Of a stretch of 64,000 nucleotides of DNA, positions 461 to 37,065 are shown piece after piece. The notes beneath the pieces were generated by a model. The model made no database searches, had not been told where the DNA came from, and worked only from the letters and a program-made list of their open reading frames with translations. This DNA comes from Ginglymostoma cirratum (taxonomy: Eukaryota): contig JAHRHZ010000004.1 of the NCBI GenBank assembly GCA_024137785.1, positions 19,916,966-19,980,965 on the forward strand, in the 5' to 3' direction. The translations under genes and the position numbers were made by a program. How positions within the stretch are numbered: the stretch's first letter is position 1; every line of letters starts with the position of its first letter.

Positions 461-1484
461 CCACACTTCTCTCTGTTCCTATTATGTCCAAAATTGCTTT
501 TGCACCAATTATTGTAAAAGTGTTCTGTAGGGTAGTTTGCCTGCTTGTAAATTTTAGGCATTAACAGGATTGAACCTGACTCAAAAAACCCTTGATTGAA
601 TGTCTGCTGTGATATTATGATTCCTCGAATACGAAACTCATTAACATCTGGCAACAAAATGTGGTGTTTCCAGAAGAGGAAGGATGATGTTAATACAAAA
701 CATAATTTGATTTCATAAATTGCTGGATTGAAAGCACAAAGCTCCGTTTATAAAGTTTGTGTGGTAACATGCAATTCATTAGGAAATTGATTTAACCGTT
801 AAAATACCTAGAAAACTAATAATATTTAGATGGGGGTCAGATGAGTAGGGTTTGATATCAGAGGAAGAGATTATCAGATTGTAAATATGAGTGAGGTCCA
901 AAAATATGGGTGAGATCAAGGACAACTGAATATCATTTTAGAGAGGCAGCAGGAAAATTGTGAGGTTGTATATCTGCAAGAGGGTAACTATTTGCAAAAG
1001 GTGGCAAATAAATGTTTTGGCTTTTGATTTCAAAGTGAAAGCTATCAGTAATGCACAGAGATTCTATCAATTGTTTTGTATTAATACTAAGCTAGAAGGG
1101 AGAGTTCCAAACTATTTTCAAAGTTGATTTGACCTTCGAAGGGCTCTTGGCACATTTATTAGAAGCAGTTTGTTTCACACAAGCTTGGTACCTGTAGGAA
1201 GTCTGAATTCAGCCATGCTTCCCACAGTGTTGAAAGGACTTCAGTGCCTACAGCAGTCAGGATAAAACTAAGCACATTCTTGCCATGATTTCCCAAACAG
1301 TGCTTGCTAAAGTGTTTGTGAAATTTGTGATGAGTTGATGAGACATTCAAGTACGATGTGTTGTGCTGTACATCTTAAATGTGAAATGTCTACACCAACT
1401 TAAACTGTATAGATGGATAATTATGAATATTTTTTGATGTGTTAGTTGACTTTTCCCATCTATTTCTGCAACCTGATAAATGGT

Positions 1485-1584
1485 TATGAGGAAGGGTCGC
1501 TGGACCCGAAATGTTGACTCTGATTTTTTTCTTCGCAGATGTTGCCAGACCTGCTGAGCTTTTCCAGCAGATTCTGTTTTTGTT
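1485..1584 (+). mobile_element. Short hammerhead-headed PLE-derived insertion (family B) with 13-bp TSD
   Basis: tatgaggaagggtcgctggacccgaaatgttg...ccagacctgctgagcttttccagc, flanked by cctgataaatggt at 1472-1484 and 1585-1597. Confidence 0.85.
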
Positions 1585-2811
1585 CCTGATAAATGGTCTT
1601 TGATTCAGTCCTCCACAAGAAGGAGAGCCTTCCTTTAATATCTCTTTTTGAAAAGAAACTGTATGGCATTTGCCAGTGACCTCATTAATTCAGTTTTGAA
1701 GTTTCATATTAATGGAGAGCAAGAATAATTCTGATATGAAGAAGCTTGAGGGGAAAGAAAGAATTATGTTGATAGCTCCTAAGGAGAAATTATACTGGAG
1801 CATTATTCCTCTCAAACATAAAACATTTTGAAATATAACCCAGAATTAACCACCTCTTCCCTGATAGGATTCACAGAAATCTGTTCAGATGTGGCTTCAG
1901 AAGGGAGTAAACAAGATGAAGTCAAGGTGAGGATGCTGTGACTAGCTGATCAATTGTAACGAGCTGGTGATATGTGTATCAGAGAGTCCTTTTGCAACCA
2001 GAGACTTGATAAACTGACAACTGTCTAGTACATTCATATTACAGTCTCTTGTCTGGTAATTTAACTGAGATTTTAAAATAGATGAGTTTTGAGAAATCAA
2101 AGTGAGGTTCATGAGACTGAAATTGCAAAGTTGTTTGGAAGCGGTGAAAACACAATTAAACAACGAAGAAGAAATGTAAATTTACTGTACTGTACACGAT
2201 TCGCCATTGTAGTTTAGCTCAGCTCAGTGGAACAAATTCAATCGTGTAGATTCTGTTGGGGTTATCTTCACAGTGTATATAGTATCAGGAATGTGTGTGG
2301 ACGAGGCGTTTTCTGACCCTTTCTCAGCTACCTCAGGCTTCTGTACTTGCCGTGAATCGCTGGCCGTTAGTGAACCACCGGGCTGCAGCGGATAACCGGC
2401 AGTGTGTCCATTTGAAATTGATTTTACCTGGATTCGTTTGTGCTGAGCTATCAAATTTAAAACATTCAAAGCGAACCCAACTCACGAATACTGGGATTTC
2501 AAGACCTAAGAAAGTGGAAGTGCTAGATGTGTTTAAAACCGCCACAAGAAACAAAAACAAATCACCGTCAGATTGTGTCCCACGTCTAACACATCAATCC
2601 CGTCTGCTGAAGGGTTAAATCCCAAACAATAACGTGCCTTTTATCTCATACCTGCCGTGCCTCCGATGCTGTCTGCTTGTGTCAAGTTCTTGTTAGTTGC
2701 TTTAAATACTGGATGGTTTTTGAACGATGATTTTTTTTCCTTTTTGAAATCCCGGAGAATTGAGGAATTGATAAATCGTGATATAATTTGTTTCCACATA
2801 CGGAGCGGATT

Positions 2812-3205
2812 CATTGGAGAGAGGAGAGGGCTGTATCACCAGTCCATTGGGGAGAGGGGAGGGAGCATTTCTCCAGTGCTTTGGGGTAGGGGAGGGGGCT
2901 GTATCGCCAATACGTTGGGGGTAGGGGAGGGGGCTGTATCTCCAATACGTTAGGGATAGGGGAGGGGGCTGTATCTCCAGTGCGCTGGGGGTAGGGGAGG
3001 GGGCTGTCTCTCCAGTGCACTGGGGATAGGGGAGGGGGCTGTATCGCCAGTGCACTGGGGGTAGGGGAGGGGGCTGTCTCTCCGGTGCTTTGTGGGTAGG
3101 GGAGGGAGCTGTCTCTCCAGTGCTTTGGGGGTAGGGAAGGGGGCTGTATCTCCCGTACGTTGGGTCCCGTAGGGGACGGGGCTGTATCTCCAGTACGTTG
3201 GGGTG
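2812..3205. repeat. 35-bp G-rich minisatellite, ~11 copies
   Basis: Unit approximately gtatctccagtgcactgggggtaggggagggggct; period 35 (2901, 2936, 2971). Confidence 0.9.
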
Positions 3206-3237
3206 AGGAGCAGCCTGTTGTCCATGGAAGGGGTCTC

Positions 3238-3243
3238 TTTATT
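3238..3243 (-). terminator. htr6: Candidate htr6 polyadenylation signal AATAAA
   Basis: tttatt on + (AATAAA on -) about 290 nt past the stop codon; motif only. Confidence 0.35.
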
Positions 3244-3528
3244 TTCTCACTCTCTCTCTCTCCAGTACATTGGAGGAGGGGGCCTCTCTTTCTCTCTCCA
3301 GTCAATGGGAGATAGTAGAGCGGTTGCCTTTGCTGTTTATGGGGTAGAGCTGAAGCGAGGGGTTTGCTGTCTCCCTCGGGTACTGTTTTAGTCAGCGGGT
3401 TGCCTTGGACCTGTATGAGGGTCCCTTGTCTGGATTTCACTGTCAGTCCAGTCTAGGGCAGAGCTGGCTCGTCCTGGATCAGGGTGGGGAGGTGGAAACC
3501 CATGGCTGGGTGGGTTCTGAATCTGCCC

Positions 3529-3951
3529 CTAGTCCATTGGTGTGTTCAGTGGGTTTCCCTGGAATTCCTGGTCAGTCTGCTCCAGCTCGAAGAGCTGCAG
3601 TGAGTCCTCCAGCTGCTGGTCCTTGGTCAGCTGCTGGTCCCTGCTGGCTGCCAGGAGGATGTGTTCGTTCACCTGGATCACCGAGTCGCCAGAGCCTGTC
3701 TCTGGCGGCAGAGTTAGCATATTTGGGACGGACAGGCCCAAACGCCGGCCGCTGTTGGAGTTTCTCATGGACAAGGAAACTACACTTGGCCGCCGCTCCC
3801 ACCAGCGGCGGCAACAAGGCAAATACTTGGCCATGGCCCGTTTGAAATCCCGCATGAAGAGAGGGTAGATGATAGGGTTCATGGTACTATTACAGTAGCC
3901 GAGCCAGGTCAGGACGTCAAAGAGAAGAGCAGGGACACATTCACACACCGC
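3529..3951 (-). CDS. htr6: 5-HT6 receptor coding exon 3 (TM7 and C-tail)
   Basis: Acceptor ttgcccacag|GCG. Encodes AVCECVPALLFDVLTWLGYCNSTMNPIIYPLFMRDFKRAMAKYLPC... with the NPxxY motif; TAG at 3529-3531. Joined CDS is 244+53+140 = 437 aa. Confidence 0.96.
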   Translation of the reverse strand, partial: AVCECVPALLFDVLTWLGYCNSTMNPIIYPLFMRDFKRAMAKYLPCCRRWWERRPSVVSLSMRNSNSGRRLGLSVPNMLTLPPETGSGDSVIQVNEHILLAASRDQQLTKDQQLEDSLQLFELEQTDQEFQGNPLNTPMD

Positions 3952-4006
3952 CTGTGGGCAAGAGACATACATGAATCAGAGACAAAATAAAGATACCCAG
4001 CCAATT

Positions 4007-4130
4007 GCTGAATGGTCACTGGACTCCAAACGTTAACTCTGCTTTCTCCCCATAGGTTTGCTGCCAGACCTGCTGAGTTTCCCAATAATATCTGTTCTTT
4101 CAAATTTCCAGCATCTGCTTTGTTGGTTTC
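4007..4130 (+). mobile_element. Degenerate family-B PLE terminal repeat (htr6 intron 2)
   Basis: ggtcactggactccaaacgttaactctgctttctcc...gctgccagacctgctgagttt. Confidence 0.7.
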
Positions 4131-4349
4131 AATTTAGCTCCAGCCATGGGCGGGGGTACTGGGAAATTGCTGCATAGTTGTAACACTGCAGCCCTGAGTA
4201 GATCAGCGCTAATGAAAATGGATAAACTTCCATCAATTACTCAGAAAAAATATAGCGATGGGAATGAGCTATTTATATTCTGACTTGGGCCTGTTGGGAG
4301 TGCAATGTTATTTTTAAAAAACAAAATCTGAAATTACTGGAGAGACTCT

Positions 4350-4475
4350 CCGTCACTGAACTGGAAACTTTAACCCTGCTTTCTCTCCACAGATGCTGCG
4401 AAACCCGCTGAGTTTCTCCAGCAATTTCTGTTTTTTTTTCCAATTTCCAACATCCACAGTTCTTCGGATTTTTTT
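4350..4475 (+). mobile_element. Degenerate family-B PLE terminal repeat
   Basis: taaccctgctttctctccacagatgctgcg...gctgagtttctccagcaatttctg. Confidence 0.7.
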
Positions 4476-5596
4476 TCAGAATGCTGTTCAAACCCAGCGG
4501 ATATCGGAGACAAATGGATTGGCGAGGCTGGAGTTGTAAAAATTTGAGGCTGTTCGAAAATTCTTTCCAGAATATTCGTGGCTCTTTGCAGCATGGAGCC
4601 TGGGAACCCTCGGGATCCTGTTTTAAGATTTCAGAGAGACATTGCTGTCTGCTTTCACGCTTTGACACATCGTTTTCTGAAGCCTTGGGACTCGCTCCGC
4701 ATCCATGAGGGCGTTTGGTGTAGTGGCATTGATCCTACCTCTGACACAGGAGCTCTGGGTTCAAGTCCCATTCTAACATATCTGCCGATGGTGCTCCCTG
4801 GGCCACGTACCGCCTTGGTTTCAGGGGACGCCGGCGACCAAGCAGTGATGGCTTTGTAAGTGAGAGAGATGTATGAACGGGGACAGGAATGCAATTGTGC
4901 TCTCAACATAGTAACAGACAGAAAAGTAAAACTCACAAGGTGCGAGACGGAAACACGCAGCGAGATAGGCATCTGCCAAACAGGGAACTATGACAGTCAA
5001 TGACAAGGAATGGCATTATTTCCATTTGTGATGCCACCTTTGTCTGAACGAATCCCAGTGCCAGCGAGTGTAAAATTCACAATTGCCTTATCACCAGCCA
5101 ACCCTTCCAGAGCCTCTAGTTAATGAGTCAGCCGAGTTTCTTGTTTAAGGGCCTGAACGAAATTGGCCAATTTACCTTTTAACCTCTGGCTGATGCTGTA
5201 CTCTGAACAACCGTCTTATAGTTGAATCAGATATTCTTAACCAACCGTGTCAGATGTGCTAGAACACATTCATGTACGTGAACCCAGACTTCCTGGCTCA
5301 GAGGTAGGGACGCTACCCCTGCACCACATGAGACCCTAAAACAGACATTTACTTTGCAACTAATTATTTGGAAAGTAGCACCTTCAAGATCAACCTAAGG
5401 ATCTGGGTTAAGATTGGTCTAATTGATTTAATGTTAGACCGTTTCCCTCTGACGATTCCTAGCGAAGGTTTATGGAAAGGAGAGGACTGGGTGCTAAGTG
5501 GTTAAGGAGAGAACAACTTTAACATGAAGGTTCCCGCTTCGGAAACCGAGATCTGGGGAGATTCTAGCCTCATCCTCAGCTCGGCGACTTGCTCAC

Positions 5597-5755
5597 CTGT
5601 GTTACATTGGCCACAAAGAACGGCAGCCAGGCCACAAAGAACATTCCCAGCAAGACCCCTAGGGTCAGGCTTGCCTTTAGAGCCCTCTTGCTGTGTTTGG
5701 TGGTGAATTTTCTGCTGTCGCTGGTTCTGGCTGATGGATTCTGAGCTCCCCGGAG
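5597..5755 (-). CDS. htr6: 5-HT6 receptor coding exon 2 (IC3-TM6); not in the supplied ORF track
   Basis: Acceptor ctcttctgatttccag|CTC and donor CAG|GTGAGC. The 159 nt encode LRGAQNPSARTSDSRKFTTKHSKRALKASLTLGVLLGMFFVAWLPFFVANVTQ, matching HTR6 DSRRLATKHSRKALKASLTLGILLGMFFVTWLPFFVANIVQ. Phase 0/0. Confidence 0.96.
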
Positions 5756-6031
5756 CTGGAAATCAGAAGAGACAGAGTCTGAGCGAGAAATATTTTGGAC
5801 ACGGCTTTCGCTGAAGACAAATCATAGTCAGGTTTCAATCTGTTAAATAATGTATAATCTACACAAATCTCCAATCCTAGCCAGGATTGAAATTCAAAAT
5901 TAATTTCAGAATTTCACAGAACCAGCAAAAACAAATGTGAAGCACATTTAGCACAGTCAGTGTGTGGGATATGGTCAGACGTAATTGTGGCAGCAACTGG
6001 GAAACAAGACTAAATATCTGCCCAAATCCAG

Positions 6032-6250
6032 CGTGACCGGTGCTGAGAGTGACCAGTCCTGAGAGTGACCGCTATTGACATTGGCCGGAGCTGTGACCTG
6101 AGGAGAGAGTGGTAGGTGCTGAGAGTGACCGGACCTGAGTGTGGCCAGAGCTAAGACTGTCCTGTGCTGAGAGTGACCGATGGAGAGTGGTGGGTACTGA
6201 GAGTGGCCGGTGGAGAGAGTTGAGGGTGACGGCGCTGACAGTGACCTGGT
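6032..6250. repeat. Irregular tandem repeat built on (g)tgctgagagtgacc, htr6 intron 1
   Basis: gagagtgacc/gagagtgg motifs recur about 10 times. Confidence 0.75.
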
Positions 6251-6328
6251 GCCGAAGCGGATCCCCGTGCCGCCGCTGATCTCGCTCCCGGGTCCCACTG
6301 GGCGAGCTGCTGCTGCTCCCGGGAATCT

Positions 6329-6349
6329 GTCGCTGTCCGCGGTGCTGAA
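6329..6349 (-). promoter_or_regulatory. REST/NRSF binding site (RE1/NRSE) in htr6 intron 1
   Basis: Minus strand TTCAGCACCGCGGACAGCGAC matches the canonical TTCAGCACCACGGACAGCGCC at 19/21 positions. Both half-sites and the 2-nt spacer are intact, in a CpG-rich patch of a neuronal gene. Confidence 0.8.
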
Positions 6350-6728
6350 ACTGAAGCCCAGCCTCTGGGCTGGGTCTATTGGTCAGCCCCGAACTCCTGA
6401 TGGGTGTCTGAATGAGATTGTAATTTACCAAGAATAACACTAGCCCCATCTTCCCCACTCCCCCTCTCCCTCACCCAGCATGTGTGGCATCTTCTGGGAT
6501 CAGCTGCTGGTTGTTGAAGCAACAGGAGTCCCAGGAAACCTGCAGAAAGACAGGAACGGATCGGGATCCCGAGCAACCTTCTCCTTCCGAGAAAGTCACT
6601 GACCTGTTATCAAAGAGTGAGAAACCTGTCTGAAGCGATTAACCCCAACCTGAGAAGGTGCCCCGCAGTCTGTGGTTTAATGCTGGGACCAGTTTAACTC
6701 CGCGGACTGTACAAAGAGGCGGCTTTAC

Positions 6729-8005: not shown

Positions 8006-8313
8006 TGGCGGCACGGTGGCACAGTGGTTAGCGCTGCTGCCTCATAGCACCGGGGACCCGGATTCAATTCCAGCCTCGGGCGACTGTCTGTGTGGAGTTT
8101 GCACATTCTCCCTGTGTCTGCGTGGGTTTCCTCCCACAGTCCAAAGATGTGTAGGTTAGGTGGATTGGCCATGCTAAATTGCCTGTAGTGTTCAGGGAGG
8201 TGTAGGTTAGGTGGGTTATAGGGGGATGGGTCTGGGCGGGATGCTCCGAGGTTCGGTGTGGACTTGTTGGGCCGAAGGGCCTGTTTCCACACTGTAGGGA
8301 TTCTATGATTCTA
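8006..8313 (+). mobile_element. HE1-type V-SINE, near full length
   Basis: tRNA-like head (TGGCACAGTGG; GATTCAATTCC), V-domain ctgtgtggagtttgcacattctcc..gtgtctgcgtgggtttcc, and CR1-like tail gggccgaagggcctgtttccacactgtagggattctatgattcta. Confidence 0.9.
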
Positions 8314-10182: not shown

Positions 10183-11840
10183 AGCAAAATCCTGCAGAAG
10201 CTGGAAAACTGAAATTTAAACAGAAAGTGCTGGAGAAACTCAGAAGGTCTGACAGCATCTTCTTCAGAATTATTTAACATGGATGTAAGTAGGAGAGATG
10301 AACAAGAGAGGAAACATAGAGTCAAGAAGGGAAGAAATAAGTTCAGTGGGGCAGAGACAGTCTGAAATTATGAGTTTGGCAGGGCAGGCCTGTTTATGTA
10401 TTTTGGAGGGAGGTAGATTTGGAGAGCAGGGCATGGTGGTGCAGTGGTTAGCTCTGCTACTGTACGGCACTAGGGGCTCAGGTTTGATTCCAGCCTTGGT
10501 GACTGTGTGGAGTTTGCACATTCTCCCTGTGTCTGCATGGATTTCTGCTGGTGCTCCTGTTTTCTCCCACAGTCCAAAGATGCACAGGCTAGATGAATTA
10601 GCCATGGTAATGTGGGGTTATGGGGAATGGGGTGGGGGGAGGCTCTGGTTCCAGACTCGATGGACTGAATGGCCTCTATCTGCACTATAGGGACTCTATG
10701 ATTCTAGAAATGGGCTGAGCAGGGTTGGAGGACTATGAGTTGGGAAGCTCTGGAGGGGAGATCTCTAGAGAAGATAAGGTTAATAACAGTTCTGGAAACA
10801 ACAGTTTAATGTACAATAGTGGGTCATGAGCCAGAAGGAGATAGCAGGAAGTGTTTGACAGTTGGCATTCAGCCTCTGCCAGATAGAAATTGACATGCTA
10901 GATGATATCAGCACCACCAGGCTTGACAACAAAGTCAGAGTTGGACCTGAGAGAACAGAGTGCAGCAGGTTCAGAAGGTGACAAGTTCAAGGGGGTGAAG
11001 GAGCAAAGAAATGAAGTCAGCCAATGGTACACTAGCAGATCTTGATGAAGAGATCAAGTATAAGCAAAAGGTTAGAGAGAGGGGTCCCATTTGAAGGGAA
11101 GTATTGGAGAAGGGTGAAAGGGTCTGCTTGGCAGACAAATGACTCTTGTCCAAATAAATGTGCATGGGGTTAATGGCAATGAAAGAAGACTTCATGCTGT
11201 GGCAGAAATTTATTGAGCTAGGGATATAAAACAATAAAACTGAGTTGTTTGCTGAGCACAGATAGTTCAGCATTACAAATGGGAAGATCATAGGGTATAG
11301 TGAATACAAGACAAGAAGGGAGATTGGAAGATAGGATGAACTTCGAGAAAATAGGAGGGGAGGAAGGATCAGAGGGGTGTCAGTGGCTATGAGTTTGTGG
11401 AACTTGTGGTCCTTAACAGTTGAAAGAGTGAGATAAGAAATGCAATGTAGCTGGGAACTGGAACAACTTTAGTGTGAGGTGCTGATAGAAAGGTTGAGGC
11501 TATACATGTGGAGGCACATAGTGGAGACACATCCATGAGTGTGGATCTCATGATGTGCAGGAGCAGCTATCTTAGGATTGTTTTTTTTTTATTGAGCATG
11601 GCATATCTCAGGGATACCTGTAATCATGGGTGTATTTGAAACATGAAGGATAGAACTTTAGTTGGAGTCTGTGCAGGGTAGGGCAGAGCTGGAGACAGTC
11701 ATTGAAGAAGAACGTGTGGATGTGAAAGCTTCAGCAGTTCTGAAGCATCATATTAGACTCAAAATGTTGACGCTATTTCCCTCTCCACAGACACTGCCAG
11801 GCCCGCTGAGTTTCTCCAACACTTTGTGTGCTGATTTTGA
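10183..11840 (-). mobile_element. Degenerate Penelope-like element (N-terminal RT region) between oppositely oriented terminal repeats
   Basis: Minus-strand remnants NLSPSEPAALCSLRSNSDFVVKP...YLAEAECQLSNTSCY and PSKIHKQACPAKLIISDCLCPTELISSLLDS resemble PLE RT motifs (ADKG region, LPKIHK..P.RPI). Terminal repeats lie at 10183-10270 (-) and 11739-11840 (+). Confidence 0.8.
10425..10706 (+). mobile_element. HE1-type V-SINE inserted in the PLE remnant
   Basis: Same head, V-domain and tail as 8006-8313; interrupts the PLE RT sequence. Confidence 0.85.
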
Positions 11841-14320: not shown

Positions 14321-14321
<1 letters not shown>

Positions 14322-14361: not shown

Positions 14362-14713
14362 TCCTGGGAATTTCTGAGATGGAAAAGATGTAAGATTTTC
14401 TTATAGGTCCTGGATGAATGCAACTTACTCTGGCCTTGGTTCCATTTTCTGAAATTTGTTTTGCTCAGCTTGATAAATTTTTATCAAAGAAGTTTCTCGC
14501 TTTTTGTTACGTAGAAAATGGAATTTGTGACAACTGAAGCTTGTAATTAAACAGCCTCCACAAATCTACAGAGAACACTCTACAAACATTTTGCTTTGTT
14601 AACCACTGATCCCTTATTCAGAGCAGAGGTGAAAATGACACACAATGTCAGTGAATCTGTATACTCAAAATTGCACTCAGCCAGATCGGGGAAAGGAGTT
14701 GGCAATTCCCAAG

Positions 14714-14840
14714 AGAGATAGTAAGAACTGCTGGTGCTGGAGTCAGAAATAACACAGTGTGGAGCTGGTGGAACACAGCAGGCTGGGCAGCATCAGAGGA
14801 GCAGGAAAGTTGACATTTCGGGTTGGAACCCTTCTTTAGA
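14714..14840 (-). mobile_element. Short hammerhead-headed PLE-derived insertion (family A-like) with 10-bp TSD
   Basis: Minus strand begins tCTAAAGAAGGGTTCCAACCCGAAATGTC; flanked by aattcccaag (14704-13) and aattctcaag (14841-50). Confidence 0.8.
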
Positions 14841-16221
14841 AATTCTCAAGTTCCATTTAACTGCAAGGGAGAGAAATCTGACCAGTATAATCTCCAAGTT
14901 TAATTCTATAGAATTACACAAGGGCACCATATATAATCAATTAGATTAACTGCAGAATTGATACAAAAAAAAACATGATGTTATAAAACCAGATTAGAAT
15001 ATTTACCCTCTTGCCTTGTTACATCTCCCCATTTCTTTCTTCCTTCTTCAACTTTTGTCTTGGTTTATCTTTTGTTTGGAAGAGTTTGGTTCATGCCAGA
15101 TGCAGTTCCATGAGTATTGGTCACCTTCTTGTATCTCATCAGGGTAGGAATTCCTTCTAGGAACTGAGCAGTGTATGTCAGCAGGCTATCTGATCATGGG
15201 AGCATCACAACGAAGGACAATTCTACCTTTATCTGCCATTCCTACATGCACTTTCCAGCAGGAGGCATTGAGTAGTGGTCAGAAGTGGAAACCCTAATCA
15301 ACCTTCTCTCCTTTTCCTGGTTCAGATGCCGTGGGTACCCCACATCAGCACAAACTGTGATCAGCTAAGCCACCACAGAATCAGGACGAAAGCCAGAATA
15401 TTTCAAATCTGTCTGCCTGCACCATATATAAACTTGGCCCAGCAAACCAAAAGCTCAGTGTCTCATTGTGTTCCGAACACAAATCACATTTTCAGTGCTC
15501 TTTACATATCAAAAATACACATTAATTACGCATAATATTATCTTGACAAGATTTGCATTTCCTTCTGAAATGATGAGTGGGTGTAGTGTTTTAAATTGTC
15601 TCTTTGCTTTTCTGTCCACTTCTGCCTTTTTTGATCTACTTATATTTCCGTCTGTGCATGTGTGGGTGTGTCTGCCAGTCTCTTTACCTCTCCATTTGTA
15701 TGCGTCTCTTTCTTTCTCTGTGTTTTGTGCCACTTTGCCTCCTTTTGTCTGTGTGTGTTTGTGTCTTCCTGTGTTGTCTCTTTTCTCTCCTACATTTGCA
15801 ATGCATTTAATGACCCACAAATTAAATGAAAGGAGGATGTTGAAAAAAAGTTTGAGATTTATAAACTGTAATTTTATATACAAACAGTTATAAGTTTGAA
15901 ATGGCTACACACAGGGATTTCTGCGGTACAAAAAACAGACTTGTTAAGTACAGACATTGTGAATCCAACACAGATCACCAAATTCTAATTATACTTTGCT
16001 GGATCTTGGTGAGCTATATATTAGTATTTGATTGAGATTCCTGCTTAATTTCTATAACAAATGGCATACTTTAAAGACTTTCCCCTTAAATAAGTCTGCG
16101 TGGATTTTTTTTTAGAAAATGTTATATTTTGATTTTTCTCTCTAAAGCTCAACAAATAAAACAAACAAAATTTTATACCACAAACTTCATTCTTTTTCTT
16201 CTTGTGCCAAAGTCTATTTCT

Positions 16222-16452
16222 CTACTCTTCCTCAGTGCCACTTCTGAGAGCAACTTGCTCATCATGGTGAACAATCTGAGGAGATCCAACAGTATCCATG
16301 GGAGAGGCTTCTTCCTCATTTAGAATTGCATTAAAAATTTGGGAATCTTGGTGGTGTTCCTTTCCACATGCCTGGCAGCTGCAGTGTACAATCTTTTCCA
16401 CTAATTTGTCCACTCTGGGCATTTCCTCATTGCCAGGACATTCCAACATGAC
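16222..16452 (-). CDS. nbl1: NBL1 last coding exon
   Basis: Acceptor tttgtgttgcag|GTC. Encodes [35 protein letters not shown]...GTEEE*. Joined CDS is 531 nt (176 aa). Confidence 0.95.
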
Positions 16453-17876: not shown

Positions 17877-18894
17877 CTGGGGGAGCGAATGAAACAGGGT
17901 AGATTATAACATCACTCAAATTGTTCATATAAAGCAGATGTTTACTTTCTTGTCTGAAATAAAACTAGAGCAATGCTATCATCTGATGCTCATAGATTAT
18001 CATTCAATTAAATGTGGAAATTAAGGTGACATAAAGTTGCTCATATTTTATTTGTTTCAGTCCACTAGAACCCAATCACACAAGATTGGCAAGCTAATCA
18101 ACAATGTTATTTATAATATTTACTGAGTGAATCAGCCACTAACAGATGCTCAGACAAAGTATACGGACCACCGAATACCAGAATCTCACAAAAAAATAAG
18201 TGTCACAAGCCTTGAAATGAGACCTGAGGCCCCTAAATTCGGCATAAAATTCTAATTACAGTTCTTACTTATTATAGTTCTGGGAAGACGTCAGTTCACT
18301 GTTGTATCACTGGGTATTGAAGTATTCATTCATGCATTGAATAAGCCAAAAGAACAGAAAAGCAGCCAGTTCTCACTATGTGCCTAGCCTGATGAAGGAC
18401 AGATGTACCACATCTATCAACAGAGAAGCCATCGAAGATCCAGCTGCTGATTTAAACTTCCAAACACCCCAGGAATCAACGACACAGTGTTTGAATGCTT
18501 TCCAGCCATTCACCCCTTGCTGCCATCTGGCTAGGTAGTATCAAGTCACAGCAGGAACAGACAAGATCTTTTCATGGCAGATTGTGTTATTTTGTAGCAA
18601 ACTGACCTGAGCAGTAGTTTTAAGAACAATGTCAAACTCAACAGTATCTTTCATCTATTTTCAAATCGCCATTTATTAGAAGTGGAGATTAATCGCTGGA
18701 TAATATACTGCCTTTAATCCTGAAGACAAACCAGTTCACACAATTTAATTCTCTACGTCACTTTTAAAAGACATATTTAAACAACAGTTTGTAGGAACAA
18801 CAGAAAGCTAATAAGGCCAACAAGCTTATCCCTTCTGTACTACCCATCTTCCATTTATATCCCTCTACCTCTGCTCTGCCGAAGACTCCTTTTT

Positions 18895-19110
18895 GGTGGT
18901 ATGGTGGTTAGCACTGCTGCCTCACAGCGCCAGGGACCCGGTTTGATTCCAACCTCGGGTGACTGTCTGTGTGCAGTTTGCACATTCTCCCCGTGTCTGC
19001 CTGGATTTTCTCCCATCTCCAATGATGTGCTGGTTAGGTGGATTTGTCATGCTAAAGAAAAAATGCTCCGTAGTGTGCAGGGATGTGCAGGTTAGGTGGG
19101 TTAGCCATGG
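18895..19110 (+). mobile_element. HE1-type V-SINE, 3'-truncated
   Basis: gtggttagcactgctgcctcacagcgccagggacccggtttgattcc followed by the V-domain. Confidence 0.85.
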
Positions 19111-19144
19111 TTAAGCCACGTCAGCCTGACCTTGCCATATTCAC

Positions 19145-20660
19145 AAAATCATACCATGACCAGTCTTCAAAAAGCAGAACAAATCCAACCCAGACAATTA
19201 CAGCTCCATTAATCTAATCTTGATCATCATCATTGTAATAGAAGGTGTCACAGACAGTTATCAAGTGGCACTTATTGATTATTCCTTTATTGACATTTAG
19301 TTTGAGTTTGACCAGGGCCACTCAGCTCCTGACCTCATTACAGTCAAACATGGATTAAAAAACTGAACTCCAGAGGCGAGATGACAGCGACTACCACTGT
19401 CATCAGGGCAGCATTTATTTGACTGAGTGTAACGTTAAGGAACCCTAACACAGCACAAGCCAAAACAAATCGGGGGAAGTCCCCCCACTGGGTGGAGTTA
19501 TAGCTAGCACAAAGGAAGAAAACCTGTGGATTCTGAAGTCAACCATTTCAGTCCCAGGACATCTCTGCAGAAGTGCCTCAGGATAGTGTCCTAGGCCCAA
19601 CCATCTTCAGCTGTTTCATCAATGACCTTTTTTCCATCATAAAGTGAGAAGTGGGAATATTTACAGATGATTGCACAATGTTTAGCACCATTCCTGACTC
19701 CTTGGGTACTGAAGCAGTCTATACCCATATGCAGGTAGATGAGGACAACATTCGGATTTGGTTGACGAGTGGATGGTAAGACTTGTACTGCATAAGTGCC
19801 AAGCACTGACCATCTCCAAATAATGAAAATCTAACCATCTCTATTTGATATTCAACGGCACTGCTATCACCGAATCCTCCAGAATCAACATCCTGAGGGT
19901 TACCATTGAACAGACACTTAATTGGACCATATGAATAAATACAGTTGCTACAAGAGCACGTCAGAGGCTGGGAATCCTGTAATGTGTAACTAAGTTCTCG
20001 ATTTCAGAAGCCTGTCCCCCATCTAAAATGCATAAGTCAAGATTACGAGTAAGAACTCTACACTGGGTTGGACTAGTACAGCTCCAATAATACTTAGGAA
20101 GCTCAACAAAACAGTCTGCTGGACTGACATCCCACTTACTGTCTTAAATATTCACTCCCTCCACCAATGGCATGCAGTGGCACCACAGTGTACCATTTCC
20201 AAAATGCACTGCAGCAACACCTCAAGGTTTCTTTGATAACACATTCCAAACCCATGACCTATACCATCTAGAAGCACAACGACAGCAGATGCATTGGAAC
20301 ATCACCAGCTGCAAGTTGTCCTCCAAGGCAGATACCATCCTAATTTGGAACTATATCACCTCCACTGGTGTTATGTCAAAATCCTGGAATTTCCTTCCTA
20401 ATAGCATGGTAGATAGACCTACACCACACTGTCTGTGTGCAGTTTGCACATTCTCCCTGTGTCTGCCTGGATTTTCTCCCATCTCCAATGATGTGCTGGT
20501 TAGGTNNNNNNNNNNGTTAGCCATGGTTAAGCCACGTCAGCCTGACCTTGCCATATTCACAACATCATAGTTCAAGAAGACAGCTCACCACCAATTTCTC
20601 AAGCAATTAGGAATTAGCAATAAATTCCAGAATTGCCAGTGATGTGCACAATAAAAAAGG
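19145..20660 (+). mobile_element. Degenerate CR1/L2-group LINE 3' half (RT and tail), nbl1 intron
   Basis: RT motifs gtgcctcaggatagtgtcctaggcccaaccatcttc (GVPQGSVLGP-like) and tttacagatgat (F(A)DD-like); tail gttcaagaagacagctcaccacc...gcaataaat...gccagtgatg. Confidence 0.85.
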
Positions 20661-24579: not shown

Positions 24580-25404
24580 TATGAAAGAAGATAGTAGCGA
24601 ACTGAGGAAAATAAGTGAGCATTCACTGACAAAATGTGGAAGAGACAACAGGAGGAACCAGTATAGAAGACCTAGTGGATTCATGCGTGTTCAGCAGTTA
24701 GGCATTTCATGAAAGGATGGAAGGGCAAGGAAATACAACCAACAGAAACATTGCTATGTCATAAAGCAAATCATTATCTGTGGGAAAAGAGAGACCATAG
24801 GCCAACATCATGGCTAGAGAGAGGAAATCTGCCACCCTTATTCAGCCTGGGTGACATGTGACTCCAAACGCATAGAAATGTAGTTGATTTTGACTGTTCT
24901 CTGAAATGGCCAAGCAAATCATTTAGTTCAGGGGCAATGGGGAAAGGCAACAAATGTTGGTCTCGCCGGCAATGATGATTTGTCAGCCCCATCCTAAAGA
25001 TTCTGCACTGAAAGAATTCTACACAATTCTAGAAAAATATACAAAAAAACAGAAAGTAGTATTGGGAAATTTCATAATAATGGCAAACATATTAATTTTT
25101 CAATAAATGTTTATATTCCATTGCTAATGTACTTCTGCCACCTCCAGTTATTCATGCAGCAAGCTAGTTGTTTTTTAAACCATGTTAACTTTATCTCATT
25201 AGAAACTGGTTCAATCAATCTGATTAAAAGTAGTTGTATGCATGGCAACCTGCAGCCAATCTGGTTCTTCAAGGGTTACAGTGGCCAGGGTCCGTCTCCA
25301 GTCTTTCCTGTCACTGTGGGAAGGTGCCAATCGTAGGGAGTGAGGGCGCATCACATTGAACTTCAACATAGGAGACAGCATCACCATCAGATGTGCCCAG
25401 TGAC

Positions 25405-25770
25405 TGACTGAGCATTGCCATGGGTCTCAATAACACAGTGAGCATCACCATGGGTCTCACATAACACACAATGAGCATTGGCATAGGTCTCACATAATGC
25501 GCAGTCAGCATTGCCATGAGTCTCACATAACACACAATAAGCATCGCCACAGGTCTCACATTAGAGGCATTGAGCATTGCCACGGGTCTCACGTAACACA
25601 CAGTGAGCATTGCCACAAGACTCACATAACACACACTGAGCATTGCCATGGGTCTCCCATAGCATACAATGAGCATCGCCATGGGTCACACATAATATGC
25701 ATTGAGCATCACTATGGGTCTCACATAAGTATGGGTCTCATACAGTGTAAGTGAGCTTCGCCATGCGTCT
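25405..25770. repeat. 33-bp minisatellite, ~11 copies
   Basis: Unit gagcattgccatgggtctcacataacacacagt; explains the 11-aa periodic ORFs. Confidence 0.9.
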
Positions 25771-27065: not shown

Positions 27066-28043
27066 TATAACACCAATGGGATGCTGGGCTGTATTAAACA
27101 TGCCCCAAAGAACTAAGATGAAGCCACATAGCACTCTTGGGATCAAGCACTCAGATGGTGTGTGGAGTTCTGGTTGCTGAAATAATAGCTCGGAGAGACA
27201 TTGCAGAGATTTATGAGGTTGATCAATGGTATCAGAAGGATAAACTGGGTGGAATGATTTTATAAGCTAGAGCTGTTCACTCTCAGAAGCTTGGAGAGGT
27301 CAGAATGCAAGATGTTTAGTGCAATAGAGAAAATGAACACAAAGGAGTATTATCATGTACATCAAACAGCAGGACAAAATGATACTGCATCAAGAGACAA
27401 CTCGTGGGTAAGGCCAAAAAGCTAGACTTACTTATGAAACATTCAGTGTTGTAATGAAGAGATGCTGTGCTGGTGTTCTGGAAACTTGAGATCAGATGGG
27501 TTCTACTAATATTGTGATTTCACAGGCACCAACTACCACTCTGACATCTCATCCGAAGAACAATGTTAAGTTTTGAGCCTAAAGAAGAAGCATTCAAATC
27601 CTACCACTTGGATCACTGTCCACCCTTCAACGTCACTGGCACACTGGGATTGTAATATGCACCATATACCAAATCTATAGCAGAAGCATCCTGTTTATTT
27701 CTTACCGCTAATAGCAGGAGTAATGATGCTAATTGCAGCACCATTATTGAGTTTCCCTTTCAGTCCCCCCAGCTAATGTAGTATGTATGAAAATATGGTC
27801 TCTTCAAATCTGTACCAATTCAGGTGGTATCTTTACCGTCTTGTCATCATACTCCTGCCTCCTGTGATTTCAGCAACTGTTTAGATCCTAGTTCTTATAG
27901 TCTATAGTCATTGGAAGATTTAACTCCAGTAGACTATGTTTGTGTCTAAGGATCCATGTGGTCTTATCCCAGCAAACACTTCTCCATGATGAACCTAAAT
28001 GCCAACATACTGAACTGCCCAAAAAAGTAAGACTTCGATGACT

Positions 28044-28170
28044 TACTGAAGAAGGGTCCCAACTCGAAACATCAACTTCCCTGCTCCTCTGATGCTGCCT
28101 GGCCTGCTGTGCTCCTCCAGCTCCACACTGTGTTATATCTGGCTCCAGCATCAGCAGTTCGTACTCTCTC
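28044..28170 (+). mobile_element. Short hammerhead-headed PLE-derived insertion (family A-like) with ~14-bp TSD
   Basis: taCTGAAGAAGGGTCCCAACTCGAAACATC...; flanks agacttcgatgact (28030-43) and agactttgatgtct (28171-84). Confidence 0.8.
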
Positions 28171-28439
28171 AGACTTTGATGTCTAGCCTTGCCCATTGGT
28201 ACTTTACTCTGCCCATCAATACCCCACACAGTGAATGGGCTATAGATCAGACAGAAGCAGGGAAGACTTCTGTTTAAGGTTTAAATTACCTGGTAACTGA
28301 AAGTAAACATGTATTATTTTAAAAAATAGAAACAGAATCAGGCTTTTTCGCACTTCAGGGTGCCCTATCATTTCATAAGATGATGGCTGTCTCACTACAG
28401 ATTGAAACAGGTCATCACAGTTTAGGAAGGGTGTGAAGA

Positions 28440-30625: not shown

Positions 30626-31261
30626 TCTGCTCTACTGGCCTTACACAATCATTTCCACCCCCCACAAGAAGAAATGGAGCAATTAATATTTTTGGAATCG
30701 ATTATATCCTCATGATACTCCAAGATTTGTCCTAGATGTCTGTCAATTTTTTCTAATGGGTCACATTTGTCTTTCCTCTGTAGATTCATCATATGCCTTA
30801 AAATACTGGGTCATCTGAGCTTGGCACGTGTAACATCACAGAGGAGCACCCACTCCATATCTGCAGCTACACACAATACACTCTCTCCTGTGTTCACCTC
30901 AGGTCTAATTAGAAAGGACCTTGTTCACAATCTTTCGAAAGGCAACATGTTGCACTGTGTCATTTTATGACCTTTGGACTTGTCTTTTAAAAGGGCTAAT
31001 TCCCTCATTATTTCATACTCCACAAACAATGGTAGAGCTCTAGACAAATACCACTTCATTAATATTAATATGTATTACTCAATACGCACAGTGTCAGCCT
31101 GTGAACAGAGTCAATGCAGATAATACTTAACTCCAAGTATGGTATTCATGCACACTGCCTTCAACTGGGAATGGAATCCATATAGAAGAGAACGTTGAAT
31201 GGAATATACTTTATATTTGCAACTCCTCCCAACAGATACTTTTACTTGAGTAATATATTTA

Positions 31262-31450
31262 ATATCCTTGAAGGAAGGAAATCTGCCATCTTTACCTGGT
31301 CTGTGATACATGTGATCTCAGGCCCACAGTGATGCGATTAACCTTTAACTACCCTCCAAAATGGCTTAGAGAACTAGTCCATTCAAGGGCACGTAGGGAT
31401 GGACAACAAATGCCAGCCTGACCAACGATACTTGCATACCAAACAAGGAT
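31262..31450 (+). mobile_element. 5'-truncated copy of the same SINE family (others at ~24815-24995 and ~53385-53485)
   Basis: gaaggaaatctgccatctttacctggtct...ttcaagggcacgtagggatggacaacaaatgccagcc. Confidence 0.7.
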
Positions 31451-33261
31451 TACCATACAAGGTTTGTTAAAATCATACAAGACACAGAAAGAGAGAGACT
31501 TGGTATGATTTCTATCTCATAGAGATAACGTTTGAATTAAAATGCAGGTGGTGAATTTACCATCTCATTCTATGTTGTGCCATCATTTTTACTGTGGCCA
31601 TCTGGTGGGTAGCAATGGTGCCTGCCCTGCATTTTGTGAATGCCTCATTAATCTGAGTAAGACAGGATCCTGTGGCACACATAGGATGCTGGGGCCACTT
31701 TAATTACCGATCAGGCAAGGCGCCCAGTGTGGGTAATTTAATGAACAAAACCTGGCAGTGGAGCAGGATGCCTAAAAAGCATTAGAATTATTGCTTTGAG
31801 ACAGGGTGGAGGGGCTACACCTCTAAAATGAACCATATTGGCCACTGGAACTGCAGGTCCTCTTTCTCCATGTTCACAATCATCTCCCCAAACACCCCCC
31901 AACTCCACACTGACCTATCCTTTTCGAGGATTGTGTATGATCTGCCCAATATTGTACTGCAATGCCAGATTGCATTATGCCACCATTCAGATATGGACCT
32001 TACTACTTATATGTTAATGAGACTCGGCCCTTCAAATGAGCGGGGCTTTTGCTGGCACGATCATGCAGTTATGCACTGGCAGTCAACCACCTAATAATTA
32101 AAATCCACAGCATTGGCCTCACCCATGGCATCTCAAAAGCTGCATTAGGAATCCTTTGCGAGCATGTTAACTCATTCAGTGGCAGCTCTGACAAAGGGCG
32201 AAGGGTGCTGACATTCTGCAGCAGGAGAACAGTCGCTTGTGTCAGCCCATTTATCCAACAATTTCAATTTGAAGCAACAATCCAAAAATAATCTGGTTAT
32301 GTAACCAAACCAGCTGACTGGGAGTTCTGAAGTAGATTGAGGTGTGGTTCATGAATGGATTTACTGGTGGGAAGACTCAAGGATCTGGATCGCCTTGTTC
32401 TGTTCCTATGAGTTGGGAAATAAAGCATTATTTGAAAACCTAACAAATTACATTGGGAGACAATAAACAGGAGCCGATCCACCTCCTGCAGAATCAGTTA
32501 CCTGCAGGTCTAACTCATCAGCTTACTTAATAAACCAGCCATTTTATCTTTTGTTTCTTCTAAGCTTCAAACAGTTCATCCAACAGAGACCCTGTCCCTG
32601 CTATAGTCTCCCTGTGTTGCAATCAAGGTATTTACTGTCTTCTACATATTTTCCAGGGATCTCAATACTGAGGAATTCTTCTCTTTCCTTCATTGTCCCT
32701 TCCTCATGCCCTTCATAGACTTTGCAAACTCCACCTGGAATCAACTAATACTGCTTTCTGATGATGCTTGACCCCACTTTTTTCCAATCTTGATAAACGT
32801 CCTGCACTATAATTTTTAACTGTTCATCCAGGTTTGCTAATGATGAGTGTTGGTTCCAGTTTGTCACAGCGTTGGAACAGAACTTAAATCCTGCAGTACA
32901 TTGTGGGAAAAAAGTCATCAATTTACTTGCTTAGTTACAATCAATTAAAGCATTTCTGCAAATGAGACTAAGTTTGTCCCTCAGATAACCCATATCATAA
33001 ATCATTAATGTTCTAGCAGGGATTCTCTTCACAAGTTTATACTGAAGGGCTGGAAACTGGTCATGTGATTGCCCCCCTCATTCAGGAAACAGGGCGGGGA
33101 CTGAAACATGGAATGGAGCAAAGAGTAAAGATGAAAATACGTGGTGAGAAATGGGAAAGCCNNNNNNNNNNNNNNNNNNNNNNNNNNNNNNNNNNNNNNN
33201 NNNNNNNNNNNNNNNNNNNNNNNNNNNNNNNNNNNNNNNNNNNNNNNNNNNNNNNNNNNNN

Positions 33262-33418
33262 CACAGCAGGCCAAGCAGCATCTTAGGAGCAGGAAAGCTT
33301 GACGTTTCAGGCCTAGACCATTTCTGATGAAGGGTCTAGGCCCGAAACGTCAAGCTTTCCTGCTCCTAAGATGCTGCTTGGCCTGCTGTGTTCATCCAGC
33401 TCCACACCTTGTTATCTT
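33262..33418. mobile_element. Inverted pair of PLE terminal repeats (family A)
   Basis: 33262-33318 is the reverse complement (one mismatch seen) of about 33333-33390; the left end runs into an N-gap. Confidence 0.85.
33321..33354 (+). ncRNA. Minimal type I hammerhead ribozyme motif (PLE-associated)
   Basis: ttt-CTGATGA-A-GGGT(CTAG)GCCC-GAAACGTC-aag; all core positions intact. Confidence 0.75.
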
Positions 33419-33841
33419 GGGACAAAGAATGAAGGGTTTTGTGAATCATCACAGCCTAGTTTTATTTACATCATTGCAATGCTTAGAGACAAAGAGCATT
33501 CATAGAAAAAGCTTAGCTTCAAAGAGCATAAGAAGGTTCCGAAAGGTATCAGACGTCTAGCAAATGCCAACCTCTGTCACAGTGCTCTGTTATCCACCAG
33601 TTGTTGACTGCCGAAATGCCAAGACATGAATGTATAAACATCTCACCCACATTCCAAATTGCAATTGCCTTCTTTCTCATGCACCATTAGGAGCTGATTA
33701 TTGGGTCACTCCCCACCCAGCAGCAATAGATTGAGATTCACAGAACATTCAAACATCAGAGGATGTTGTTCAAATTATTCCAATCCATTTGGAGGATCTT
33801 ACTGGACATCTGGTATAAACTGTGATCTTCAACTGACATGA

Positions 33842-33919
33842 TCCCGAAACGTCAAGTTTTCCTGCTCCTATGATGCTGCTTGACCTGCTGTGTTCATCCA
33901 GCCCCATGCTTGTTATCTC
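33842..33919 (+). mobile_element. 78-bp family-A PLE terminal fragment present in only one copy of a tandem duplication
   Basis: The empty site gacatgaaaat is seen in the paralogous copy (~34586); the filled site shows a 3-bp tga duplication. Confidence 0.85.
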
Positions 33920-34744
33920 TGAAAATGTTCATATTTGAGTTTGGAGAATGGGTTGGAAAGACACAAAGAGAAGAAAATAAAAAAGCACATTGAAAGAGGA
34001 GATATTAAAAATGTTGTCTCTGGGCATTCTGATTTGCTCTGTAATATGGGTCCAGTGATGTGTGTGAACAATAATTGAGACAGTTAGAATGATCAATACT
34101 GAGAGAGAGACAGTACAGATTGATCAGTACTCAGAGTGAAACAGTACAGAGCTAACATGTCAGGCCAAAATCCAAGTGGAGATGGGAAAGATCAAGCTCA
34201 GTGTCTGATGTTCACATTGAAATTTACCAAAAACTGAAGCAAAGTTGAATACTTCCATATTGTAAATTAAAGGAAACTGACTTTGATTATTTTAAATAAG
34301 CAAACTTGCAGAATCTAGTTTAGACATGTTGAAATAGCTGACTTGAAAACACGCGTATGAGCCAAATCCATGATGACTATGGGCCAATATCTCATCCACA
34401 TTCCAAATTGCAATTGCCTCCTTTCTCCTGCACCATTTTTGAGCTGATTAATGGGTCACTCCCCACCCAGCAGCAACAGATTGAGATTCACAGCACATTC
34501 AAGCATCAGAGGCTGTTGATCAAATTATTCCAATCCATTTGGAGGATCTTACTGGACATTTAGTATAAACTGTGATCTTCAATTGACATGAAAATATCCA
34601 TCTTTGAGTTTGGAGAATGGGTTGGAAAGACACAGAGAAGAAAATAAAAAAGCACATTGAAAGGGGAGATACTAAAAATGTGGACTCTAGGCATCCTGAT
34701 ATGCTCTGTAATATGGGTCCAGTGATGTGTGCAAACAATAAGTA

Positions 34745-35060
34745 AGACAGTTAGAATGATCAATACTGAGGGTGAGACAGTACAGATCGATCAGTACTGA
34801 GACTAAGACAGTTAGAAAGATCAGTACTGAGAGTGAGACAGTACAGATTGATCAATACTGAGTGAGAGAGCATAGATTGATCAGTACTGAGAGTGAGACA
34901 GTACAGTCTGTTTAGTGCTGAGAGTGAGACAGTACAGACTGTTCAATGCTGAGAGTGAGACAGTACAGATTGATCAGTACTAACAGTGAGACAGTGCAGA
35001 CTGATTAATATTGAGAGTGAGACAGTACAGACTGACCAATACAGAGAGTGAAACAGTACA
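34745..35060. repeat. 31-bp minisatellite, ~10 copies
   Basis: Unit gatcagtactgagagtgagacagtacagatt. Confidence 0.9.
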
Positions 35061-36644
35061 GAGCTAACACTTTAGGCTGAAATCCAAGTGGAGATGGGAA
35101 AGGTCAAGCCTCAGTGTCTGATGTTCACATTGAAATTTACCAAAAATCCAAACTGAAGCAAAGTTGAATACTTCCATATTGTAAATTAAAGGAAACTGAC
35201 TTTGATTATTTTAAATAAGCAAACTTGCAGTATCTAGTTTAGACATGTTGAAATAGCTGACTTGAAAACACGGTGTACGAGCCAAATCCATGATGACTAT
35301 GGGCCAATAATTATTCATGTCCTGGACTTGCACTGATTGAGGTTAAAACAGTCAAACTTTCCAAACAATCTCCATGCACGTTGCGGCTTTAGAAAAGAAA
35401 GGCGTTTCCAGACAGTAGTGTGTCCACTCAGATAAATTCCTATATTTGGGAAGATTGCAGTGCTTGGAGAGCCATGAGAAATATTCAGCGTCTCCAGTGT
35501 CCCTGGCTGTCCTCAAGTTACCGATTCTGAATCAGGTGCAGCAGTTCTTGCTGAAGGTTGCTTGCTATTTGCAGCTTGGCGCTGTATGTGAACGTCCCTT
35601 ATCTCATGTCCCGAGGCACTCTACAGTGCAATTAGTTCCTTACTGCCCGAGTCTCCGAGTGCGGCCTAACCCGAGAACGCTGGTTAAATCAATGTTTTGC
35701 AAACAGGTATTAGACGAACACCAACTCAAAGCCCAGAACTGGATTCTGGCAGCGGAACAATATCAGACTGTGTAATCAGGACCATTTACCAGTCTGTAAG
35801 ATCCTGACCTGATTCATTTTGTTAACAGTTTTGTGCATTTTGTTCACTGGTTATTAACATTTCATTTCCTTGTCTGCATATTTTACCTTCAGTTAAGTTT
35901 CTGTCTGTTGCAAAATCAAATTAAAGCAAAATGTGTCCTTCTGCAGCATTGTATTTTGTGTGTTTGCACTGAATATTTAAAGTACAAGATTGTTTTAATC
36001 GAAACGACTTGATTCAAACCCATGCACACTGGGGACAAGCCTCAAACCGTATGCTGTTAAACTTGGTTCCAGCACTGAGTGTGACCTGGTTCTACCCTAA
36101 TTAAACTGCAGTTGTTTCATCCAAGCCTCTACAACACTGCATCCAAACATGCCGAAAGAGGAGGATCCTCGCTGGAGGTGCTCCCTGAGTCCAAGTCCAA
36201 CCGGCAACCACATGCCAGTTGGATCTCCGAGAGTTCTGTTTCCAATGCAGCAATTAAACTTTCCACCCACTTCGAAGCCGGGTCAGTGATAAACTTGTCA
36301 TCTGAATCAGATACTACCATCTGACTGCCCCAGTTTCTTTTTGGTGTTAAGGGGTCGATTAAGGCCGGGATGCATCGGGCAGCCACCGAGCTGGATCGAG
36401 TCACCCGCTTGGGGACATGACTCATGCACAAATCGAGCAGTTTGCTCGGAGGCCAGAATTTGGGAGAGTTTGGGCGCGCAGCTACTCACAAGCAGCGTTT
36501 TAGGGCCAGTTTCACATACAAAACGAGGGTTTGTTTTTCTCTCTCCCTCCCTTTACATCTACATTTTCTATCTTCCCTATATGCAGTGTAGCAATCCTTC
36601 AAATTACAACCTTAGAGCCATGGCAAAATTGTACACTTTTAAAA

Positions 36645-37065
36645 TATGTATTCTTTGTGGGTTGTGGGCGTGTGGCTAACAATTGTTGCCCATCCCTATT
36701 TGCCCTTGAACTAAAATAAAACAAATAATTGCGGATGCTACAAATCCGAAACAAAAACAAATTGCTGGAGAAACTCAGCAGGTCTGGCAGCATCAGTGGT
36801 GAAAAAAGCAGAGTTAATGTTTCGAGTCCAGTGGCCCTTTTTCAGTTTGCCCTTGAACTGAATGGCTTGCTCGGCCTTTGCAAAATCAACTACATTAGCT
36901 TGGAGTCGCATGTAGGCCAAACCAGGTAGGGATGACAAATTTCCTTCACTAAAGGCATGAGTGAACCAGGTAGGTTTTTATAAGGATAGTTTTCACAGCC
37001 AACATTAAGTTCCAGCCTAATAATTTAAATTAAATTCAATCATTTGCCACGCTGGGACTTGAACT
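36645..37065 (-). mobile_element. Same SINE family, host of the 36713-36845 insertion
   Basis: gcccatccctatttgcccttgaact...aaatttccttcactaaaggcatgagtgaaccag. Confidence 0.7.
36713..36845 (-). mobile_element. Short hammerhead-headed PLE-derived insertion (family B) with perfect 14-bp TSD, nested in a SINE
   Basis: Minus strand begins CTGAAAAAGGGCCACTGGACTCGAAACATT; tttgcccttgaact at 36699-36712 and 36846-36859. Confidence 0.88.

Follow-up and report, generated by a model that had tools for sequence, protein, structure and literature searches.

The 64,000-nucleotide stretch of the Ginglymostoma cirratum genome analysed here (GenBank assembly GCA_024137785.1, contig JAHRHZ010000004.1, positions 19,916,966 to 19,980,965; hereafter the window) contains four short insertions that all begin at the front edge of a hammerhead ribozyme motif, and the question it raises is what fixes this edge. 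The inserts are terminal pieces of Penelope-like elements (PLEs) of the Neptune type, and no separate mini-element is involved. We consider it probable that such minis arise by run-off of the reverse transcriptase (RT) at the capped 5' end of the element RNA, predicted to lie 4-5 nt before the hammerhead core; run-off at a capped transcription start, which is missing from the explanations listed in the initial annotation, fits the observations best. Element coordinates are counted on the sense strand of the hammerhead, with its C3 at position 0.

The inserts were found where they had first been described, with duplications of 10-14 bp, in two sequence families and in both orientations (+, -, +, -). 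Mini-insert 1 (1485..1584, + strand) is a front piece of PLE subfamily B1 which spans about -3 to +96 and has a tail-less 3' end, where target and element continuation match over 6 nt; its target-site duplication comprises 1472..1484 and 1585-1597 (13/13 identical). Mini-insert 2 (14714..14840, - strand) covers -4 to about +125 of subfamily A2, with the tail, and has 3 nt in common with its duplication (14704..14713 and 14841-14850; 10 bp, one mismatch). Mini-insert 3 (28044..28170, + strand), likewise A2 and with the tail, extends from about -3 to +124 between 14-bp duplicates that differ at two positions (28030..28043 and 28171-28184). Mini-insert 4 (36713..36845, - strand) belongs to subfamily B2, reaches from 0 to about +132 with the tail, and is flanked by 36699..36712 and 36846-36859 (14/14). 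Hence, inserts 2 and 3 represent family A and inserts 1 and 4 family B. The C3 positions are 1486, 14839, 28046 and 36845. A start within 0-2 nt of C3, as initially annotated, holds for insert 4; counted with the bases common to the duplication, the templated starts of inserts 1 to 3 lie at -3, -4 and -3, and that of insert 4 at 0.

Long copies linked to the same termini carry an open reading frame (ORF) with RT and GIY-YIG domains, the partial tandem (pLTR) and the hammerhead, and thus bear out the PLE origin that had been proposed. Locus L261 is a full-length, mutated A1 copy with a unit of 3454 bp, in which a 5'-truncated upstream copy is followed by the hammerhead, the tail, an ATG at +166, the ORF and a terminal repeat that ends at +94; at locus L329 the B1 front is arranged as in L261, with the ATG at +168. 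Given this layout, the minis match the 3' end of the element and the front of its main body alike. The partial tandem is found in both L261 (A1) and L329 (B1). Queries taken from the start of the ORF (+132 onward) gave 46 family-A and 29 family-B loci, of which 30 and 21 have a front hammerhead; among the latter, an upstream partial copy is present in 10/30 (A) and 10/21 (B). In long copies of family A, a single ORF matches RVT_1 (E 3e-7) and GIY-YIG, the second at E 0.001-0.004, which is below the curated cut-off, with the motif visible; for family B both domains were read from the translations. A Cys-x3-CxxC Zn-finger-like motif is visible between RT and endonuclease (EN) in both families. 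The placement in the Neptune clade is by domain layout rather than by an RT tree. The 3' ends are bimodal, at about +92-98 and +123-130, and the spacing corresponds to the 30-40 nt tail; a like bimodality is known for the in vitro RT start sites of the Anolis element PAc (PMC11167929).

Is the front edge a general property of these elements? To the extent that 100 stretches of 10 kb can show it (placed at round coordinates on contigs with earlier matches; 649,185 readable bases), it is. The census yielded 176 copies, reduced to 146 by removing low scores and copies adjacent to N or to stretch edges. The 5' ends of 36/84 family-A and 30/62 family-B copies fall at -7..+2, and the rate per base in this interval is 16 times (A) and 12 times (B) that of +3..+45; the boundary is therefore non-random, as first claimed. 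The sharp peak that had been expected at C3 exists, only 3-5 nt upstream of it. Its mode is -3 in both families, with a reference match of 0.66-0.67 at -3 versus 0.34-0.40 at -4, and family B has a shoulder to -5/-6. Front ends recur in loci obtained with hammerhead-free queries (15/27, 22/29 and 14/29; these short-query sets leave out A1), and among the loci from ORF-start queries that have a front hammerhead, 17/30 (A) and 11/21 (B) start at the front. An aligner artefact was rejected as the source of the pile-up, since simulated uniform truncations gave 6-15 calls per 150 at -7..+2 against 5-15 true ones. A splice-acceptor origin of the edge was likewise dismissed: an AG is present at -4/-3 in family B and absent in family A, and the edge is common to both. 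The density of about 260 copies per Mb would amount to roughly a million copies in the 4.36-Gb genome, a rough figure from a non-random sample.

The same census bears on self-cleavage of the hammerhead, or a circular RNA resulting from it, as the cause of the boundary. A circular template has been proposed for PLE tandems (PMC4209133), and the hammerhead core is intact in 39/53 A1 copies; yet only 2/84 (A) and 2/62 (B) of the 5' ends lie at the cleavage site (+24..+33), which agrees with the early view that self-cleavage does not explain the edge. Nor did the 146 sampled copies show a peak at self-cleavage or structure-stall positions. In 388 loci and the window, the search for a cut-site end joined to a front start, in which seamless joins are invisible, returned two matches, both of them inverted junctions. 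Moreover, a circle has no end at -4, which also speaks against the circular template among the explanations first considered, and cleavage is dispensable for insertion of PAc, the Poseidon element of Anolis carolinensis, in vitro according to the available part of that study (PMC11167929). We give this alternative hardly any credence.

The flanking repeats of the front-start copies exceed chance, as anticipated: at a score threshold of >=9, with swapped flanks as control, duplications flank 24/81 simple front-start copies versus 1/400 controls, and 6/29 shorter copies. About 70% of the simple front-start copies are without a call at this threshold. The lengths are mostly 10-16 bp. Among long copies a duplication was called in 2/37 versus the 24/81 of front-start copies, a difference partly due to limited reference length. 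At the 3' end, at least 2 nt are common to element and target in 18/32 junctions, where 12% would be expected. This enrichment at the +93/+127 end speaks against an antisense RNA template, on which copying would begin at the -3 edge and end at +93/+127. Such a template was proposed for rotifer Penelope in the Discussion of PMC3846280, where it accounts for retained introns and for palindromes in head-to-head arrangement; the elements studied here are also rich in head-to-head pairs, with an inverted partner for 50/146 sampled arms. However, the ends of long copies are constant at +93/+127 and variable on the 5' side, and PAc is described as starting in vitro on sense RNA, at the ends of the tail (PMC11167929), so that we regard antisense copying as highly improbable. 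Head-to-head pairs, among them L012, L018, L092, L100 and L154, often combine an arm that extends to the tail with one that stops at the first site, which suggests a separate start site for each of the two nicks.

The structure of composite insertions also informs on the 5' end. These start at the front, continue into the ORF, break off somewhere from +295 to +1736, and pass directly into a second front piece ending at about +85-135; a single duplication encloses the whole composite in 9/24, so that at least those composites are single events. Extra letters occur at 14 of 23 internal restarts of family A, and in 14/14 they end in a G adjoining a start at -4/-5 (P 3e-4 against 0.25); the L278 junction, whose G is templated by the ORF, was removed from this count (15 to 14). 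The remaining 9/23 are direct joins. The T-run agrees between the two starts of one insertion in 14/16 cases (Fisher p 0.013), and a four-T start variant occurs at restarts and in 0/19 seamless junctions. This agreement would be in line with two rounds of copying on a single RNA molecule that has a 5' end of its own. Concordant restarts elsewhere, at -26 and -119, are seen in two composites, and in these the second start is likewise preceded by a G. In a search of the loci for host DNA between two front pieces under one duplication, we found no convincing case.

Two further observations concern the composites. In locus L376 (G000:C41), the segment -119..+272 was apparently copied through at least part of a third round, with a G at both junctions, in a manner reminiscent of rolling synthesis on a linear RNA. 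The restart landing sites recur across independent insertions, at +397, +456-458, +492, +617-620, +748-763 and +1467-1469 (L261 body coordinates), mostly after A and in some cases with short A-runs. Because the full A1 unit contains neither AATAAA nor ATTAAA, canonical poly(A) sites can be dismissed; the landing sites may correspond to RNA ends with oligo(A) or to positions at which re-priming is favoured.

Promoter-like motifs are found at the position where the run-off reading places the RNA start. In the four subfamily references, a TATA-like hexamer lies at -31, -31, -31/-29 and -30 from A(-4), in three of the four as the sole such site within 300 nt, and A(-4) sits in an initiator-like context in all of them. 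The rotifer pLTR is described with a similar pair of TATA and initiator-like motifs (PMC8557442; PMC3846280). Furthermore, extra G residues mark capped full-length L1 insertions in the portion of PMC11702581 at hand. Loose read ends in one poly(A) RNA run number 1412 at -3 and about 10,000 at +126..+128; these pile-ups reflect boundaries of transcribed genomic copies and not RNA starts. Fifty RNA reads span a +406/G/-5 joint and probably derive from a transcribed genomic copy.

Several points weigh against a capped start at -4/-5. The TATA and initiator motifs are short and were recognised by eye from the general consensus sequences. The RNA 5' start received no call from one unstranded poly(A) run (X20), which informs on family A only and whose reads stem from many genomic copies. 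A non-templated G marks the end of a template, which is not necessarily a cap. Simple inserts have their mode at -3 instead of -4/-5, and the reference match at -4 is near background. At outer junctions, a G precedes the start in 5/22 motif-bearing A copies, which is no clear enrichment, and internal restarts of family B carry a G in 1/7 and A-runs in 3/7. Some composites restart far upstream (-26, -119, -144, -420); several of them show microhomology and could reflect deletion after insertion. All junction sets are of small size, and they were drawn from the best-scoring young copies. Finally, the promoter of Drosophila Penelope is described as TATA-less, with a start well upstream of the hammerhead, in the available part of PMC2377424.

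An edge so close to the ribozyme could also be imposed by the ribozyme itself. The hammerheads of the window are decayed: core mutations affect insert 1 (1486..1515, + strand; C3>A, predicted cut after 1515), insert 2 (14812-14839, - strand; G5>A) and insert 4 (36816-36845, - strand; G8>A), and the core of insert 3 (28046-28073) is without the 15.2-16.2 pair. An Rfam scan of the window detected no hammerhead at E<=5; an alignment fold of 16 copies recovered stem II, and together with the core motif this points to a putative minimal type I hammerhead in the pLTR. One could imagine that RT, copying a long RNA from its 3' terminal repeat, stopped at the front edge at a folded or protein-bound ribozyme, or that the endonuclease cut the new DNA near -3, with jumps following the stall. 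The sharp mode at -3 in both families is in keeping with this, as are the start of helix I at -4 in family B and the preference of the PAc endonuclease for ATT reported in the accessible text of PMC11167929, given that family A has ATT at -4..-2. A block by structure should, however, halt RT on the 3' side of the ribozyme, around +30, and few ends lie there; for the same reason the RT arrest offered in the initial annotation loses its appeal. Helix I has only 2-4 bp and is not predicted in the consensus fold, and neither the extra G and T nor the matching starts within one insertion would follow from a stall. Such a stop therefore appears unlikely to us. Apart from the hammerhead, a second, nearly invariant hairpin of 4 bp is located at about +62..+78 in all four subfamilies; it is conserved between A and B and is a candidate protein-binding element. 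In family B, the region at about +35..+52, 3' of the hammerhead, contains a pyrimidine tract, CAG and ATG and resembles a splice acceptor, with no donor identified.

If the minis formed a discrete non-autonomous unit, similar to a retrozyme or a short interspersed element (SINE), with its own lineage and mobilised in trans by PLE protein, they should stand apart from the long copies. On a tree built from 94 columns of 65 family-A copies, minis are intermixed with long copies in every subfamily, which argues against a separate retrozyme family; a starred young clade alone holds seven minis and eight long copies. The label mini or long changes 17 times on the tree versus 20.6 times when shuffled, with 26/500 shuffles as low, and 0% of the bootstrap trees have a single label change. 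The short copies thus do not form the separate clade once envisaged; there is no own clade at the low resolution of this tree, and tandem arrays of the unit are absent from the window repeat scan and the same-strand pair scan of loci. Besides, the minis are without the upstream TATA-like box, and ORF-bearing copies have the same start. On the other side, short front-start copies outnumber long ones, the clustering on the tree is weak rather than nil, and retrozymes have been reported as PLE derivatives with dispersed monomers (bioRxiv 10.64898/2026.07.22.740005). Taken together, we judge a discrete unit to be quite improbable. Mobilisation in trans is possible in a weak sense only, in that promoter-bearing truncated copies could supply RNA.

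According to the run-off model, polymerase II would start the RNA at -4/-5, and the element protein would nick the target at two points about 10-16 bp apart. The nicked target DNA, paired to the RNA over a few bases, would then prime RT at +93 or +127. Where priming takes place at the 5' copy of this site, RT would reach the cap after about 100-130 nt, and the extra G would be the copied cap; the hammerhead, as the first structure in the RNA, would be copied uncut. Joining of the run-off cDNA to the target would leave a mini, often minus 1-2 nt, hence the mode at -3; trimming and microhomology in joining could account for the -3 peak and the scarcity of G at outer junctions. Copying from both nicks would give a head-to-head pair, and a composite would result if RT jumped elsewhere on the same RNA. 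Where the jump took place inside the terminal repeat and left no seam, it would produce the partial tandem and restore the upstream promoter; all 19 terminal-repeat junctions counted are seamless, which read-through from an upstream start would explain equally. Long copies would either begin at the 5' site and jump or begin at the 3' copy of the site.

Much of this is familiar from related systems; solo minimal hammerheads, tails and inverted copies are already published, and the elements belong to a known class. With endonuclease-bearing PLEs of the Neptune clade, as portrayed in the available portions of PMC8557442 and PMC3846280, they share RT, the Zn-finger-like linker and the C-terminal GIY-YIG domain, as well as the partial tandem, the optional 30-40 nt tail, inverted 5' copies and target-site duplications. 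The 5' truncations there are frequent and variable, whereas a pile-up at a single position, an extra G or restart composites are not reported in those portions. In the excerpts of PMC11167929, the tail of PAc is defined by two internal RT start sites 3' of the hammerhead, cutting and extension involve both strands, and hammerhead cleavage is unneeded, as in our proposal. Differences are that its ORF starts inside the hammerhead (here at +166/+168), that priming is reported as non-homologous (here 18/32 junctions share nucleotides with the target), and that the end point of copying is not addressed in these excerpts. Retrozymes and dispersed minimal hammerheads have the type I core in common with our elements, along with thousands of single motifs, attributed to truncated PLEs, and some opposite-strand pairs; in contrast, our copies show neither tandem array nor own clade, and the unit starts before the core and not at the cleavage site. 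The R2 RT, as described in the accessible part of PMC8857657, jumps between templates after non-templated addition, similar to the copying proposed here.

A broader parallel can be drawn. LTR (long terminal repeat) retroelements make strong-stop DNA and undergo a first strand transfer. Copying near the RNA 5' end, a non-templated base and continuation elsewhere are features that this strong-stop step, R2 and L1 (PMC11702581, in part) would have in common with the PLE composites. Here, the primer would be nicked target DNA instead of a tRNA, no integrase would be involved, and the short product would be joined to the chromosome from the outset, so that failures are kept as insertions. PLE minis would thus work like strong-stop products without the elements being LTR elements. 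We tentatively put forward the possibility of a hybrid route, in which target-primed reverse transcription (TPRT) near the capped 5' end of a linear RNA yields a strong-stop cDNA that undergoes strand transfer: seamless transfer within the terminal repeat would give full copies and renew the pLTR with its promoter, failed transfer minis, double priming head-to-head pairs, and mis-aimed transfer G-marked composites.

The window harbors further pieces of these elements. A presumed template-jump product at 43459..44061 (- strand) joins an ORF piece (+2412..+2906) through an A-rich linker of 8 nt, whose last letter is G, to a front piece (-5..+91). At 33262..33417, adjoined by an N run on its left side, two A1 front pieces form a head-to-head pair with a + arm from about -6 and a - arm from +6. 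The long A1 copy at 1..139 (+ strand) is cut by the window edge and retains the TATA-like box and the initiator-like start upstream of its hammerhead. An A1 piece at 33843..33922 (+ strand; +17..+96) is truncated within the hammerhead and has a non-front start. Old B2 pieces are located at 4010..4115 (+ strand; about +5..+113), at 4318..4464 (+10..+122, with a short inverted arm of +68..+98), at 11735..11829 (+ strand; front piece starting at -5) and at 37379..37504 (+ strand; front piece with its start near -4 and only an approximate right end). Positions 16225-16452 on the - strand contain the final coding exon of a gene of the DAN family (Pfam DAN, weak match at E 0.014), which we take to resemble NBL1; several inserts probably lie in or near this gene. 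Another dispersed repeat family, presumably tRNA-SINE-like, occurs at 8010-8177, 10430-10610, 18890-19113, 20428-20505 and other places. Minisatellites with units of 35, 33 and 31 bp occupy 2813-3232, 25403-25765 and 34078-35272, and local duplications of 667-919 bp surround 33691-35272.

As by-products of a known class of element, the inserts are themselves dead; their interest lies in the clue they give to the replication cycle, and they may explain how the repeated ends of PLEs are built. A search of titles and abstract openings, a source of incomplete coverage, returned no report of a PLE 5' pile-up or of cap-marked jumps. An RNA start predicted to the base, together with a putative cap signature and recurrent landing sites, makes the PLE replication cycle testable. 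If the hybrid route is real, intermediates of the cycle would be preserved in this genome by the hundreds of thousands. If the run-off reading is true, the hammerhead occupies position +5 in the RNA and is copied without being cut, which would constrain the purpose of the ribozyme.

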